DNA from: Escherichia coli
GTDB lineage: Bacteria > Pseudomonadota > Gammaproteobacteria > Enterobacterales > Enterobacteriaceae
Length of the DNA stretch: 53,345 bases
Assembly: GCF_003334405.1 (NCBI RefSeq)
Contig: NZ_QOWM01000021.1
Direction: 5' to 3' (one strand)
Shown here: piece after piece, positions 3,476-31,049 of the stretch
Layout of the letters: the number at the start of each line of letters is the position of its first letter
How positions within the stretch are numbered: the first letter of the stretch is position 1
Notes under the pieces: model-generated
What the model was told of the DNA's origin: nothing
What the model saw: only the letters and a program-made list of their open reading frames with translations
The model's database searches: none
Program-made: the position numbers and the translations under genes

Positions 3476-4906
3476 ATGATACGTAAGTCAGCTACAGGTG
3501 TTATTGTTGCGTTAGCCGTAATCTGGGGTGGTGGCACATGGTACACAGGTACGCAAATTCAGCCTGGTATCGAAAAATTTATTAAAGATTTTAACGATGC
3601 TAAAAAGAAAGGTGAACATGCCTACGATATGACGTTAAGTTATCAAAATTTTGACAAAGGCTTTTTTAATTCCCGTTTTCAAATGCAAATGACATTCGAT
3701 AACGGTGCACCCGATCTCAATATCAAGCCAGGCCAGAAAGTTGTATTTGATGTGGATGTTGAGCACGGTCCGTTGCCCATCACAATGTTAATGCATGGTA
3801 ATGTCATCCCAGCACTGGCAGCGGCAAAAGTGAACTTAGTGAATAATGAACTGACACAACCGCTATTTATCGCCGCGAAAAATAAATCGCCCGTGGAAGC
3901 GACATTGCGATTCGCGTTTGGTGGCTCATTCTCTACGACATTAGATGTTGCCCCTGCAGAGTATGGAAAGTTTTCTTTTGGTGAGGGCCAGTTTACTTTT
4001 AATGGTGATGGTAGTTCATTGTCTAACCTGGATATTGAAGGCAAAGTCGAAGATATTGTTCTGCAATTATCACCAATGAACAAAGTAACGGCAAAAAGTT
4101 TTACCATTGATTCTCTGGCGCGATTAGAAGAAAAGAAATTTCCGGTTGGTGAAAGCGAGTCGAAATTTAATCAGATTAACATTATCAATCACGGGGAAGA
4201 CGTTGCCCAAATCGATGCTTTCGTTGCAAAAACCAGGCTGGATCGCGTTAAAGACAAAGATTATATCAATGTCAATCTCACCTACGAACTTGATAAGTTA
4301 ACAAAAGGGAATCAGCAACTCGGTAGTGGTGAGTGGTCATTGATTGCTGAATCTATTGATCCCTCAGCAGTGCGCCAATTTATCATCCAGTATAACATTG
4401 CGATGCAGAAGCAGCTTGCTGCACACCCTGAGTTAGCAAACGATGAAGTTGCTCTGCAAGAAGTGAATGCTGCATTGTTCAAAGAGTATTTACCGTTATT
4501 ACAAAAAAGTGAGCCGACCATTAAACAACCGGTAAGATGGAAGAACGCACTCGGCGAACTAAATGCCAATCTGGATATCAGTATTGCCGACCCAGCCAAA
4601 TCTTCATCATCCACAAACAAAGATATCAAATCGCTCAATTTTGATGTGAAGTTACCGCTTAATGTCGTCACAGAAACCGCAAAACAGCTTAATTTATCTG
4701 AAGGAATGGATGCGGAAAAAGCGCAAAAGCAGGCTGATAAACAAATCAGCGGGATGATGACATTAGGTCAGATGTTTCAGTTAATCACGATTGACAACAA
4801 TACCGCCTCGCTGCAGCTGCGTTATACACCGGGTAAAGTTGTTTTTAACGGACAGGAGATGAGCGAAGAAGAATTTATGTCTCGTGCCGGACGTTTTGTT
4901 CATTAA
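3476..4906 (+). CDS. yihF: DUF945 family envelope protein YihF
   Basis: ORF-track frame starts at GTG 3434; I prefer ATG 3476 (MIRKSATGVIVALAVIWGGGTWYTG..., N-terminal hydrophobic segment), giving 476 aa. Confidence 0.85.
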   Translation: MIRKSATGVIVALAVIWGGGTWYTGTQIQPGIEKFIKDFNDAKKKGEHAYDMTLSYQNFDKGFFNSRFQMQMTFDNGAPDLNIKPGQKVVFDVDVEHGPLPITMLMHGNVIPALAAAKVNLVNNELTQPLFIAAKNKSPVEATLRFAFGGSFSTTLDVAPAEYGKFSFGEGQFTFNGDGSSLSNLDIEGKVEDIVLQLSPMNKVTAKSFTIDSLARLEEKKFPVGESESKFNQINIINHGEDVAQIDAFVAKTRLDRVKDKDYINVNLTYELDKLTKGNQQLGSGEWSLIAESIDPSAVRQFIIQYNIAMQKQLAAHPELANDEVALQEVNAALFKEYLPLLQKSEPTIKQPVRWKNALGELNANLDISIADPAKSSSSTNKDIKSLNFDVKLPLNVVTETAKQLNLSEGMDAEKAQKQADKQISGMMTLGQMFQLITIDNNTASLQLRYTPGKVVFNGQEMSEEEFMSRAGRFVH

Positions 4907-4913
4907 AATACTC

Positions 4914-4946
4914 ACTCGCCTCTGCTCATTCAGAGGCGAGTAAAAC
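4914..4946. terminator. Putative bidirectional terminator between convergent yihF and yihG
   Basis: Inverted repeat CTCGCCTCTG...CAGAGGCGAG lies between the two convergent stop codons. Confidence 0.45.
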
Positions 4947-5879
4947 TTACTTATTCTGACGCTGTGATGACATGAGAGACGTCAGAAGCCGGTCTTTTTC
5001 CTGCCACAATGAGTTCAGCCATTGCTGAAAATGGCGCTTAAAGCTTTTGTCATTGATGTAGTCGCCATGTAACTCATCGGCAATAGGCTGTAAATCCACA
5101 TGTACGACAATCCGCGTCAGTTTACCGCTTAACATATCGAAGAACGGCTGACGGTTATTGTCCGGATAACACAGCGTAACATTAAGCAGTTTATCGAATT
5201 GTTTACCCAGTACATTTAGCGCCATCGCAATGCCTGCCGCCTTTGGTGGCAACAAGTTTTGAAAAGTGGAGTGGGTTTGCTGATGTTTTTCTTGCGTGAA
5301 ACGGGAGCCTTCAACGAAATTGACAATGGTGGTGGGATGCAGGCGAAACTTTTCACAAGAACGCCGAGTGGTTTCAACATCTTTACCACGTCGCTCCGGA
5401 TGACGTAATAAATAAGCGCGGGAATAACGCTTCATAAACGGCATATCCAGCGACCAGCACGCCAGGCCAAGAAATGGCACCCAGGCCAGCTGTTGCTTGA
5501 GGAAATATTTATTCATCGGAATGTGCTTACGAAACAGCACGCACAGTACGACAATATCTGCCCAACTACGGTGGTTACAAATAAGCAGATACCAGTTCTT
5601 CTTACTTAACCCTTCCAGCCCGTGAACTTCCCATTGAAGGTGTGGGTTCAGATGCAGTAATACCGCCAGACCTTCACACCAGCAATACATCATAAAATCA
5701 CAAAAACGCGAAACCTTTCGCCAAATGACTGGCACAGGTAGCAATAGTTTTACAATCCCGGCAATGATGATCGGGACGGAACAAAAAATAGTGACCAAAA
5801 TGGTCAATACGATACTCAGCAAAAGGGTTATCGCAGCGAGTATTCTCGTCATAATGAATTTATTCAAAAGGTTAGCCAT
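4947..5879 (-). CDS. yihG: PlsC-family acyltransferase YihG
   Basis: ORF-track frame (TTG at 5903) trimmed to ATG 5879 ([20 protein letters not shown]...), 310 aa; acyltransferase motif NHRSWADI. Confidence 0.85.
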
Positions 5880-6109
5880 AGACAGTGCGCTAAAGAAGCG
5901 CAAGGCGCAGATTTTAGCAGAAAACGACCCAAATAACGGATGATCCTTAAGGAGAAAAATAATTCATATCTATCCACATTAGAAAAAATCCCATTATCTC
6001 AATTATTAGGGATGGATTTATTTTTAACTGCATGAAAAACAAAGACAAACATCATGCTGTAAAAAGCATGATAATAAATTAAAAGCGATGTAAATAATTT
6101 ATGCACAAA

Positions 6110-6118
6110 GTTATCCAC
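6110..6118 (+). promoter_or_regulatory. DnaA-box consensus 9-mer in polA upstream region
   Basis: TTATCCACA is an exact match to the DnaA box consensus TTATNCACA, about 130 bp upstream of the polA ATG; a second near-match CTATCCACA is at 5970-5978. Confidence 0.45.
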
Positions 6119-6242
6119 ATGACGATTTGCGAGCGATCCAGAAGATCTACAAAAGATTTTCACGAAAAGCGGTGAAAAACTCATGTTTTCATCCTGTCTG
6201 TGGCATCCTTTACCCATAATCTGATAAACAGGCACGGACATT

Positions 6243-9029
6243 ATGGTTCAGATCCCCCAAAATCCACTTATCCTTGTAGATGGTTCATCTTATCTTTATC
6301 GCGCATATCACGCGTTTCCCCCGCTGACTAACAGCGCAGGCGAGCCGACCGGTGCGATGTATGGTGTCCTCAACATGCTGCGCAGTCTGATCATGCAATA
6401 TAAACCGACGCATGCAGCGGTGGTCTTTGACGCCAAGGGAAAAACCTTTCGTGATGAACTGTTTGAACATTACAAATCACATCGCCCGCCAATGCCGGAC
6501 GATCTGCGTGCACAAATCGAACCCTTGCACGCGATGGTTAAAGCGATGGGACTGCCGCTGCTGGCGGTTTCTGGCGTAGAAGCGGACGACGTTATCGGTA
6601 CTCTGGCGCGCGAAGCCGAAAAAGCCGGGCGTCCGGTGCTGATCAGCACTGGCGATAAAGATATGGCGCAGCTGGTGACGCCAAATATTACGCTTATCAA
6701 TACCATGACGAATACCATCCTCGGACCGGAAGAGGTGGTGAATAAGTACGGCGTGCCGCCAGAACTGATCATCGATTTCCTGGCGCTGATGGGTGACTCC
6801 TCTGATAACATTCCTGGCGTACCGGGCGTCGGTGAAAAAACCGCGCAGGCATTGCTGCAAGGTCTTGGCGGACTGGATACGCTGTATGCCGAGCCAGAAA
6901 AAATTGCTGGGTTGAGCTTCCGTGGCGCGAAAACAATGGCAGCGAAGCTCGAGCAAAACAAAGAAGTTGCTTATCTCTCATACCAGCTGGCGACGATTAA
7001 AACCGACGTTGAACTGGAGCTGACCTGTGAACAACTGGAAGTGCAGCAACCGGCAGCGGAAGAGTTGTTGGGGCTGTTCAAAAAGTATGAGTTCAAACGC
7101 TGGACTGCTGATGTCGAAGCGGGCAAATGGTTACAGGCCAAAGGGGCAAAACCAGCCGCGAAGCCACAGGAAACCAGTGTTGCAGACGAAGCACCAGAAG
7201 TGACGGCAACGGTGATTTCTTATGACAACTACGTCACCATCCTTGATGAAGAAACACTGAAAGCGTGGATTGCGAAGCTGGAAAAAGCGCCGGTATTTGC
7301 ATTTGATACCGAAACCGACAGCCTTGATAACATCTCTGCTAACCTGGTCGGGCTTTCTTTTGCTATCGAGCCAGGCGTAGCGGCATATATTCCGGTTGCT
7401 CATGATTATCTTGATGCGCCCGATCAAATCTCTCGCGAGCGTGCACTCGAGTTGCTAAAACCGCTGCTGGAAGATGAAAAGGCGCTGAAGGTCGGGCAAA
7501 ACCTGAAATACGATCGCGGTATTCTGGCGAACTACGGCATTGAACTGCGTGGGATTGCGTTTGATACCATGCTGGAGTCCTACATTCTCAATAGCGTTGC
7601 CGGGCGTCACGATATGGACAGCCTCGCGGAACGTTGGTTGAAGCACAAAACCATCACTTTTGAAGAGATTGCTGGTAAAGGCAAAAATCAACTGACCTTT
7701 AACCAGATTGCCCTCGAAGAAGCCGGACGTTACGCCGCCGAAGATGCAGATGTCACCTTGCAGTTGCATCTGAAAATGTGGCCGGATCTGCAAAAACACA
7801 AAGGGCCGTTGAACGTCTTCGAGAATATCGAAATGCCGCTGGTGCCGGTGCTTTCACGCATTGAACGTAACGGTGTGAAGATCGATCCGAAAGTGCTGCA
7901 CAATCATTCTGAAGAGCTCACCCTTCGTCTGGCTGAGCTGGAAAAGAAAGCGCATGAAATTGCAGGTGAGGAATTTAACCTTTCTTCCACCAAGCAGTTA
8001 CAAACCATTCTCTTTGAAAAACAGGGCATTAAACCGCTGAAGAAAACGCCGGGTGGCGCGCCGTCAACGTCGGAAGAGGTACTGGAAGAACTGGCGCTGG
8101 ACTATCCGTTGCCAAAAGTGATTCTGGAGTATCGTGGTCTGGCGAAGCTGAAATCGACCTACACCGACAAGCTGCCGCTGATGATCAACCCGAAAACCGG
8201 GCGTGTGCATACCTCTTATCACCAGGCAGTAACTGCAACGGGACGTTTATCGTCAACCGATCCTAACCTGCAAAACATTCCGGTGCGTAACGAAGAAGGT
8301 CGTCGTATCCGCCAGGCGTTTATTGCGCCAGAGGATTATGTGATTGTCTCAGCGGACTACTCGCAGATTGAACTGCGCATTATGGCGCATCTTTCGCGTG
8401 ACAAAGGCTTGCTGACCGCATTCGCGGAAGGAAAAGATATCCACCGGGCAACGGCGGCAGAAGTGTTTGGTTTGCCACTGGAAACCGTCACCAGCGAGCA
8501 ACGCCGTAGCGCGAAAGCGATCAACTTTGGTCTGATTTATGGCATGAGTGCTTTCGGTCTGGCGCGGCAATTGAACATTCCACGTAAAGAAGCGCAGAAG
8601 TACATGGACCTTTACTTCGAACGCTACCCTGGCGTGCTGGAGTATATGGAACGCACCCGTGCTCAGGCGAAAGAGCAGGGCTACGTTGAAACGCTGGACG
8701 GACGCCGTCTGTATCTGCCGGATATCAAATCCAGCAATGGTGCTCGTCGTGCAGCGGCTGAACGTGCAGCCATTAACGCGCCAATGCAGGGAACCGCCGC
8801 CGACATTATCAAACGGGCGATGATTGCCGTTGATGCGTGGTTACAGGCTGAGCAACCGCGTGTACGTATGATCATGCAGGTACACGATGAACTGGTATTT
8901 GAAGTTCATAAAGATGATGTTGATGCCGTCGCGAAGCAGATTCATCAACTGATGGAAAACTGTACCCGTCTGGATGTGCCGTTGCTGGTGGAAGTGGGGA
9001 GTGGCGAAAACTGGGATCAGGCGCACTAA
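6243..9029 (+). CDS. polA: DNA polymerase I
   Basis: 928-aa [33 protein letters not shown]...; 5'-3' exonuclease, 3'-5' exonuclease and polymerase motifs (e.g. [17 protein letters not shown]). Confidence 0.98.
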
Positions 9030-9175
9030 GATTCGCCTGAACATGCCTTTTTTCGTAAGTAAGCAACATAAGCTGTCACGTTTTGTGATGGCTATTAGAA
9101 ATTCCTATGCAACAACTGAAAAAAAATTACAAAAAGTGCTTTCTGAACTGAACAAAAAAGAGTAAAGTTAGTCGC

Positions 9176-9284
9176 GTAGGGTACAGAGGTAAGATGTTCT
9201 ATCTTTCAGACCTTTTACTTCACGTAATCGGATTTGGCTGAATATTTTAGCCGCCCCAGTCAGTAATGACTGGGGCGTTTTTTA
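9176..9284 (+). ncRNA. spf: Spot 42 small RNA
   Basis: gtagggtacagaggtaagatgttctatctttcagaccttttacttcacgtaatcggatttggctgaatattttagccgccccagtcagtaatgactggggcgttttttta matches the remembered 109-nt Spot 42 sequence, including the terminal hairpin CCCCAGTCAgtaaTGACTGGGG plus U-tract. Confidence 0.9.
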
Positions 9285-9309
9285 TTGGGCGAAAGAAAAG
9301 ATCCGTAAT

Positions 9310-9390
9310 GCCTGATGCGCTATGTTTATCAGGCCAACGGTAGAATTGTAATCTATTGAATTTACGGGCCGGATACGCCACATCCGGCAC
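9310..9390. repeat. REP pair (BIME) downstream of spf / engB
   Basis: gcctgatgcgctatgtttatcaggcc and gggccggatacgccacatccggcac palindromic units. Confidence 0.5.
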
Positions 9391-9409
9391 AAGCATTAAG
9401 GCAAGAAAA

Positions 9410-10042
9410 TTATTCGCCGTCCTGCGTTTCTTCTACAGGCTGCATCTCGCTAAACCAGGTATCCAGTTTCTGCCGCAGCTTGTCCACGCCTTGTTTCTTC
9501 AACGAAGAAAACGTTTCAACCTGCACATCACCGTTAAACGCCAGTACAGCTTCACGCACCATATTCAATTGCGCTTTACGTGCGCCGCTTGCCAGTTTGT
9601 CCGCTTTGGTCAGCAGCACCAGAACGGCGATATTGCTGTCTACCGCCCACTCAATCATCTGCTGATCCAAATCTTTCAGCGGATGGCGAATATCCATTAG
9701 CACCACCAGACCTTGCAGGCTCTGACGTTTTTCGAGGTATTCGCCGAGCGCACGCTGCCATTTGCGCTTCATCTCTTCCGGGACTTCCGCATAACCGTAC
9801 CCAGGCAAGTCAACCAGACGCTTGCCGTCAGCCACTTCAAACAGGTTGATAAGCTGGGTGCGCCCTGGGGTTTTTGAGGTACGAGCCAGGCTTTTCTGGT
9901 TAGTCAGCGTGTTCAGCGCGCTGGATTTACCTGCGTTGGAACGGCCTGCAAAAGCCACTTCAATTCCGGTATCGGAAGGTAGGTGGCGAATATCAGGCGC
10001 ACTCATCACAAAATGCGTCTGTTGATAATTCAAATTAGTCAA
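9410..10042 (-). CDS. engB: Ribosome biogenesis GTP-binding protein EngB (YihA)
   Basis: 210-aa ORF with G1 motif [15 protein letters not shown], and LTKADK. Confidence 0.95.
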
Positions 10043-10312
10043 AGCGGTCGTCTCCGTCAGTCAAAGCTTTGTGGCGATTATACCTGAACCATAATAAAAG
10101 GCGGATTTTTCGGCGTGAGCGTTGTAAGTAAAAGCCATACGCTTTGTGAGACATTGCCGATAGTCTTTATGCGAAATAGCAGAGAAAATTCTGCGATGCA
10201 TGTCAAATAAGCTATATAAATCAGTGAATTGCTTTTATATAAAACTCTGAAAATGTGCAAATACTGATGGCGGTTGATTGTTTGTTTAAAGCAAAGGCGT
10301 AAAGTAGCACCC

Positions 10313-10556
10313 ATAGAGCGAGGACGCTAACAGGAACAATGACTCAGGATGAGGGTCAGGAGCGCCAGGAGGCGAAGACAGAGGATTGTCAGGAAGACAA
10401 ACGTCCGGAGACGTAATTAAACGGAAATGGAATCAACACGGATTGTTCCGGCTAAAGGAAAAACAGGGTGTGTTGGCGGCCTGCAAGGATTGTAAGACCC
10501 GTTAAGGGTTATGAGTCAGGAAAAAAGGCGACAGAGTAATCTGTCGCCTTTTTTCT
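10313..10556 (+). ncRNA. csrC: CsrC small RNA (CsrA-sequestering)
   Basis: About 244 nt starting atagagcgaggacgctaacaggaacaatgactcaggatgagggtcaggagcgccaggagg..., with about 14 GGA motifs (many as CAGGA), ending in hairpin GGCGACAGagtaatCTGTCGCC plus TTTTTT; lies between engB and yihI as expected. Confidence 0.85.
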
Positions 10557-10623
10557 TTGCTTGCTTTCTGTTAGATTCCGCCGCAAATCTATACTGAATA
10601 AAACGGCTAAAAGACGAACCATT

Positions 10624-11133
10624 ATGAAACCATCATCTTCAAACTCACGCAGCAAAGGTCATGCAAAAGCGCGTCGAAAAACACGCGAGGAGCTGGATCA
10701 GGAAGCTCGTGATCGCAAGCGTCAGAAAAAACGTCGTGGTCATGCGCCGGGCAGCCGCGCAGCGGGCGGAAACACCACGTCAGGCAGCAAAGGCCAGAAC
10801 GCACCAAAAGATCCACGTATTGGCAGTAAAACCCCTATTCCATTGGGCGTGACTGAAAAAGTCACCAAACAGCACAAACCGAAGAGTGAGAAACCTATGC
10901 TTTCACCGCAGGCGGAGTTGGAATTACTGGAAACGGATGAGCGTCTGGATGCGCTGCTGGAACGTCTGGAAGCAGGCGAAACCCTGAGTGCCGAAGAGCA
11001 ATCCTGGGTGGATGCTAAACTGGATCGTATTGATGAGTTGATGCAGAAACTCGGCCTCTCTTATGACGATGACGAAGAAGAGGAAGAAGACGAGAAGCAA
11101 GAAGACATGATGCGTCTGCTGCGGGGCAACTAA
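10624..11133 (+). CDS. yihI: Der GTPase-activating protein YihI
   Basis: ORF-track frame 10561 trimmed to ATG 10624 ([26 protein letters not shown]...), 169 aa; basic N-terminus and acidic C-terminus [14 protein letters not shown]. Confidence 0.9.
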
Positions 11134-31033: not shown

Positions 31034-31049
31034 TCCTTTTATCCTCATC

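Follow-up and report, generated by a model that had tools for sequence, protein, structure and literature searches.

Conserved arrangement of DnaA boxes around a known DnaA operator upstream of polA in Escherichia coli and related Gammaproteobacteria

The window analysed here, a 53,345-nucleotide stretch of E. coli DNA, carries yihG and polA in divergent orientation on either side of an AT-rich intergenic region (Table 1). Window positions 4277-11777 match NC_000913.3 4045000-4052500 of E. coli K-12 MG1655 with no differences, so that a genome coordinate is the window coordinate plus 4040723. Three DnaA boxes are found in the intergenic region, all belonging to the 9-mer class TTATNCACA with no more than one or two mismatches to the consensus TTATCCACA. 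A sequence-only reading of this DNA had proposed two of them. The one-mismatch box CTATCCACA lies on the plus strand at 5970-5978, exactly as that reading gave it. The exact box is also present, but it had been placed at 6110-6118, which is off by one from its true site at 6111-6119; both boxes do fall in the yihG-polA intergenic region, as was claimed. What was overlooked is a third box, TTATGCACA, located 3 bp 5' of the exact box. These two boxes share the same orientation and are separated by the spacer AAG, and they constitute a double DnaA box, which is defined by a spacer of 2 or 3 bp. The remaining box, here called the distal box, is without a partner box 2-3 bp away. On the minus strand, the sole match near the polA boxes is TTATTTACA at 6089, which has two mismatches and is not conserved.

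Table 1. Features of the yihG-polA region, in window coordinates.
Feature	Position	Strand	Remarks
yihG	4947-5879	-	start codon at 5879
yihG-polA intergenic region	5880-6242		363 bp, 35% GC
Distal single DnaA box CTATCCACA	5970-5978	+	one mismatch, at position 1
AT-rich inter-box spacer	5979-6098		120 nt, 25% GC; length conserved, sequence not
IHF-like core position (WATCAANNNNTTR on the minus strand)	6025-6037	-	E. coli plus strand TAACTGCATGAAA, degenerate, 7/9
Weak partner box TTATGCACA, upstream half of the double DnaA box	6099-6107	+	one mismatch
Consensus DnaA box TTATCCACA, downstream half of the double DnaA box	6111-6119	+	exact
TTGCGA	6127-6132		just after the exact box; conserved in Enterobacteriaceae
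GATC (Dam) pair	6135-6138 and 6144-6147		second within AGATCT 6143-6148
TGTGGCATCCT, TRTGG-CATSCT motif, candidate extended -10	6199-6209	+	predicted start near 6216
CATAAT	6215-6220		conserved in Enterobacteriaceae
polA CDS (DNA polymerase I, regulated gene)	6243-9029	+	b3863, NC_000913.3 4046966-4049752

Binding of DnaA at this locus has been demonstrated in vivo. A ChIP-seq analysis of DnaA in MG1655 reported 16 bound regions, including one named "polA" at 4046831 with a 123-fold signal over control (Stringer, Fitzgerald & Wade 2024, PMC11317965). Table 1 of that study lists a polA "double DnaA box", tTTATGCACAaagTTATCCACAt, which includes TTATGCACA and is identical to window 6098-6120. The footnote of the published table cites NC_000913.2; its oriC and mioC entries, which we checked against NC_000913.3 3925600-3926700, fit NC_000913.3, and we therefore used NC_000913.3 numbering to map the polA peak. 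The peak centre then falls at window 6108, within the 3-bp spacer of the double box. These published data show that DnaA strongly occupies the double box TTATGCACA-aag-TTATCCACA (6099-6119) in vivo, and they provide the ChIP-seq occupancy that the sequence-only reading had named as a check. A single peak was called at polA, on the double box, at a resolution that does not separate the distal box (PMC11317965). At the double box of purH, which has the same design, binding needs both boxes and the 2-3 bp spacing (PMC11317965). The functional partner of the exact box at polA is TTATGCACA and not the distal box.

The strength of the polA signal deserves attention. DnaA binds just 13 of the genome's 32 exact boxes in vivo, and the signals at bound regions span a wide range, from 4-25-fold at dnaA, rpoH, nrdA and mioC to 78-218-fold at oriC, datA and DARS2 (PMC11317965). 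The nrdA double box is similar in sequence quality to that of polA, yet its signal is 14-fold rather than 123-fold (PMC11317965). A difference of this size between boxes of like quality suggests that auxiliary elements raise the occupancy of the polA site.

A regulatory effect on polA has also been reported. Quinones et al. 1997 (PMID 9106210), as cited by three papers, described stimulation of polA by DnaA in stationary phase, and the evidence for polA activation consists of this one study, as conveyed by those citations. Together, the ChIP-seq peak (PMC11317965) and the stimulation reported in 1997 support the suggestion that polA is subject to DnaA-dependent modulation. The size of the effect is uncertain, because in a 2025 proteome study the deletion of datA, DARS1 and DARS2 left most proteins of the DnaA regulon at wild-type levels; PolA is not named individually there. 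The authors of the proteome study also raised the possibility that promoter boxes may titrate DnaA. How DnaA activates transcription has been described as poorly understood (PMC11317965). The boxes are thus real, and a DnaA site upstream of polA was already known; as originally worded, the finding adds nothing new, since both DnaA binding at this place and an effect on polA had been published before. The comparative data below concern the surroundings of that known site.

We took polA loci from 80 gammaproteobacterial species, using the first 200 residues of PolA as the query. In 34 genomes, E. coli among them, an exact TTATCCACA stands on the polA strand 92-185 bp upstream of the start codon. 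Every culture-named Enterobacterales genome in the sample has it, as do all of the Vibrionales and almost all of the Alteromonadales; within the 80-species set, it was not found in Pasteurellaceae, Orbaceae, Pseudomonas, Halomonas and other groups. In nearly all of these 34 genomes, a weak partner box that fits xxxxxxACA stands just upstream of the exact box, across a 3-bp spacer that fits (A/G)A(G/C). Almost every genome with the module also has the distal box, in the form nTnTCCACA and on the same strand, and this box is unpaired in the relatives too. The distance from the distal to the exact box is 141-143 bp in Enterobacterales and Vibrionales and 127-148 bp in Alteromonadales, where most genomes have 143-148 bp, and Pseudoalteromonas and Psychromonas have 127-134 bp. 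It is this conservation that suggests that the distal box is a functional site. A literature search of limited reach returned no account of this box and its constant spacing, or of the IHF core and the promoter motif discussed below, and the conservation of the distal box, of its fixed 141-143 bp spacing and of the promoter motif across three orders seems to be undescribed.

The DNA between the distal box and the double box is constrained in an unusual way. Its length is 120-122 nt throughout Enterobacterales and Vibrionales, and its sequence appears free to vary: pairwise identity between taxa is 0.53-0.59, against 0.54-0.58 for shuffled sequences, and within Enterobacterales alone it is 0.59 against 0.58. 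A segment that is held to a length and not to a sequence suggests a spatial relation between the proteins that bind at either end. One element inside the spacer does recur. An IHF-like core lies at an offset of 55-56 from the distal box, near the midpoint between the boxes, and it is complete (9/9) in Enterobacter sp. Bisph1, two Photorhabdus species, Providencia, Acerihabitans, Aliivibrio and Enterovibrio. A core of at least 8/9 is found in 8 of 26 taxa, where 5000 shuffles gave a mean of 0.3 and never more than 3, and all 11 Enterobacterales have at least 7/9 at the fixed offset. Several Alteromonadales have an 8/9 core on the opposite strand, at an offset of approximately 66-71. Based on these matches, an IHF site likely stands at the centre of the spacer in many relatives, and in E. 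coli this site would be degenerate. A central TTGAT motif was considered as a promoter and rejected on inspection of the sequences, as no consistent -10 follows it.

Downstream of the double box, a second conserved element is found close to the gene. Of the 34 genomes that carry the module, 31 have the motif (T/C)(G/A)TGG-CAT(C/G)CT, with the core GGCAT[C/G/T]CT, at 35-69 nt ahead of the polA ATG. Where the module is missing, this core appears once only, at -162 in a single genome. The motif reads as TRTGn followed by a hexamer in which A-11 and T-7 are retained; a usable -35 is missing, and the motif is probably an extended -10 promoter element. An extended -10 that is without a usable -35 would be expected to form a weak, activator-dependent promoter. 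A generic sigma-70 scan of 5800-6350 returned no promoter. Two other identities for the conserved element were rejected: a sigma-54 promoter at TGGCAT, since the -12 GC position varies among the sequences, and a second, inverted DnaA box formed by TGTGGCAT, since the CCACA part varies (TATGG, CATGG, CGTGG) while GGCATSCT is constant. It is also possible that Enterobacteriaceae have a lineage-specific promoter, for which the conserved TTGCGA and CATAAT hexamers (Table 1) are the candidates.

The position of this motif relative to the double box varies between genomes in steps. Distances from the exact box to the motif cluster at approximately 50, 60, 72, 83 and 91 bp, which corresponds to a period of about 10.5-11 bp. 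A Rayleigh test of helical phase gives p values of 0.006-0.02 on the 15 distinct distances, a statistic that is weakened by the shared ancestry of the genomes; over all taxa, which are not independent, the p value is far smaller. Clustering at about 10.5-11 bp is what would be expected if DnaA must share one face of the helix relative to RNA polymerase.

Taken together, we consider it likely that the conserved features are the parts of the known polA DnaA operator, in which DnaA binds primarily at the double box and the distal box has an auxiliary part, acting across a bent or looped spacer, and that DnaA held in this arrangement activates a weak extended -10 promoter in helical register. In the mechanism that we propose, DnaA would bind cooperatively and, from the double box, stimulate transcription of polA, reportedly mainly in stationary phase. 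The core promoter would be the weak extended -10 TGTGG-CATCCT, which has no good -35; its conservation is what suggests this role. The double box would act from approximately 100 bp upstream of the promoter and on one helical face, as a class I-like upstream activator does, again judging from the conserved distances. The distal box, 141 bp away, may serve as an auxiliary element that stabilises the DnaA complex through DNA bending or looping, a role to which its fixed spacing points. In many relatives, the central IHF site would serve this bending, and in E. coli this site appears degenerate. If this proposal holds, the conserved auxiliary box, the length-constrained spacer, the likely IHF bend and the in-register weak promoter together offer a handle on activation by DnaA, and the auxiliary features may explain why occupancy is about tenfold higher than at the nrdA double box.

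It is also conceivable that the arrangement does more than activate a promoter. An ancient DnaA-IHF-DnaA module shared by three orders, made up of the single box, the spacer of about 120 nt with its central IHF site and the double box, and accompanied in Enterobacterales and Vibrionales by Dam sites at fixed offsets, could assemble a higher-order bent complex like those of datA, DARS2 or oriC, beyond a simple activator site; we regard this extension as tentative, and as rather doubtful at present. If true, such a module would act on DnaA availability or on the DnaA nucleotide cycle, or would couple polA expression to passage of the replication fork.

A related reading, which we consider unlikely although it is the most serious of the alternatives, is that the module is mainly an element of DnaA homeostasis, either a titration site or a datA-like locus for the balance of DnaA-ATP and DnaA-ADP, and that any effect on polA is secondary. 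The published occupancy is in keeping with this reading, as the polA signal is comparable to those of oriC, datA and DARS2 and well above those of the 4-25-fold promoter sites. The surroundings are as well: the polA site is 121 kb from oriC, and the window contains 21 boxes with at most one mismatch to TTATCCACA where 10.4 are expected, a number that was reached in 1 of 100 shuffles and in 1 of 1000 Markov simulations of the window. This excess fits the dense DnaA boxes reported around oriC. A homeostatic function is also favoured by the proteome data, in which disturbing the DnaA cycle left most of the regulon unchanged, and by the suggestion of the same authors that promoter boxes may also titrate DnaA.

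A structural parallel for such a function is datA. This locus carries out datA-dependent DnaA-ATP hydrolysis, for which DnaA boxes 7, 2 and 3 and an IHF site are needed. Both loci have a double box of one design (TTGTAAACAgagTTATCCACA in datA), a further direct box and, between the boxes, a minus-strand IHF core or, at polA, an IHF-like one, and both show very high ChIP occupancy. The parts are, however, arranged differently. In datA the double box is 5' of the IHF core and the single box is 3' of it, an order that is reversed at polA, and the span is 162 bp in datA and 141 bp at polA. The IHF core is a 9/9 match in datA and only a 7/9 match in E. coli polA. The polA module is tied to a promoter, which that of datA is not: it is always attached to polA, whatever the neighbouring gene may be, and the promoter motif accompanies it, approximately in helical phase. 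These associations argue against a mainly homeostatic role. We also know of no replication phenotype for the polA DnaA site.

Attachment to polA bears equally on the question of whether the distal box belongs to yihG. According to this second alternative, the distal box, which lies 91 bp from the start codon of yihG, serves a divergent promoter of that gene and is unrelated to polA. The box is indeed nearer to the yihG start (5879) than to polA. yihG, however, is the upstream neighbour of the module only in Enterobacteriaceae proper. In other groups, its place is taken by dsbA, a hemB-like gene, an elbB-like gene or others, which may point in either direction, and in Photorhabdus, Providencia, Vibrio, Rheinheimera and Bowmanella, whose neighbouring genes differ, the distal box nevertheless keeps its fixed distance. 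Two natural insertions in E. coli separate the candidates further. In strain CE0011b, an IS1 lies in the yihG-polA spacer, and its 9-bp target duplication is exactly the distal box CTATCCACA; in strain EC590, an ISApl1 lies at window 5952/5953, 17 bp upstream of the distal box. Both insertions split yihG from the module and leave all three boxes joined to polA. The distribution of the box among genomes and around these insertions indicates that it goes with polA rather than with yihG, and we find a role for yihG to the exclusion of polA very improbable. A dual role of the distal box in E. coli, for yihG and polA, is possible.

The remaining alternative is that the boxes are functionless chance matches in AT-rich intergenic DNA. 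At least one exact box appeared in 27% of first-order Markov simulations of the 53-kb window, so that a single exact box is unremarkable, and the in vivo data also show, as noted above, that most exact genomic boxes are not bound. The arrangement at polA is a different matter. Not one of 1000 simulated windows contained three boxes on the same strand within 150 bp, each with at most one mismatch. Nor did any of the 1000 contain an exact box with a partner of at most one mismatch 2-3 bp away, a pairing that arose in 1 of 20000 simulations with intergenic composition. The polA boxes are the only cluster among the 21 boxes of the window; nearly all of the others are intragenic, and the only intergenic ones outside the polA cluster are at 17539-17547, in the glnA-bipA spacer, and at 31039-31047, in the yihS-yihT spacer. 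With these simulations set beside the direct ChIP-seq peak at polA (PMC11317965) and the conservation of the boxes across three orders amid otherwise randomised sequence, chance can be dismissed with near certainty.

Several smaller features of the intergenic region were also considered. The pair of GATC (Dam) sites that follows the double box recurs at fixed offsets: in Enterobacteriaceae, GATC lies at +15/16 and +24/25 after the proximal box (six genomes), and in Vibrionales, at +6 and +17 after the distal box (four genomes), where about 0.1-0.2 GATC per 60 nt would be expected. In the Alteromonadales sampled, no GATC pairs were found at box-fixed offsets. A link of these pairs to hemimethylation or to SeqA would be speculation. 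The AGATCT at 6143 was examined as a conserved 6-mer for ATP-DnaA and rejected, as relatives have CGATCG or GGATCC at this place. Between the double box and the TGGCAT motif, at 6155-6198, lie the near-palindromic A/T-tract elements CAAAAGATTTTC and GAAAAACTCATGTTTTC, which are conserved within Enterobacteriaceae only and could be a binding site or bent DNA.

Within the inter-box spacer, an inverted repeat with a 9-bp stem, CATCATGCTGTAAAAAGCATGAT, lies at 6050-6072 and has a terminator-like score on the minus strand. It was ruled out as a terminator or an RNA because it is missing in Citrobacter, and for the same reason it is probably incidental. An Rfam search of 5700-6400 returned no RNA family. 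An 80-aa ORF on the minus strand at 5999-6241 was rejected as a gene, its sequence being unconserved even within Enterobacterales.

The polA site was also compared with other DnaA loci. In the left half of oriC, which comprises R1, an IHF site, R5M and low-affinity sites, a high-affinity box cooperates with distant boxes across an IHF-bent, AT-rich segment that bears GATC. The polA region is similar in that it also has a high-affinity box and a distant box across an AT-rich segment; it differs in being without a low-affinity array at an 11-bp period and without a 13-mer unwinding element, and its spacer sequence is unconserved. The core of a DARS locus consists of the oppositely oriented DnaA boxes I and II together with box III. 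No DARS-type core is found at polA, where the three boxes (at most one mismatch) are all on the plus strand.

Two further loci contain box arrangements that resemble parts of the polA region. In datA (NC_000913.3 4392677-4392926), ATATCCACA, the variant that also forms the distal polA box of most Enterobacterales, lies 67 bp 5' of the double box, and the minus-strand 9/9 IHF core lies 65 bp after the exact box. The purH site, like that of polA, has an exact box with a weaker partner 3 bp upstream, is located in the box-dense zone around oriC and gives nearly the same ChIP signal (124-fold at purH and 123-fold at polA); its double box is on the minus strand and belongs to a different gene. Upstream of purH (NC_000913.3 4207701-4207885), a box with two mismatches, TGATTCACA, lies 135 bp 5' of the double box on the same strand and recalls the distal box of polA.
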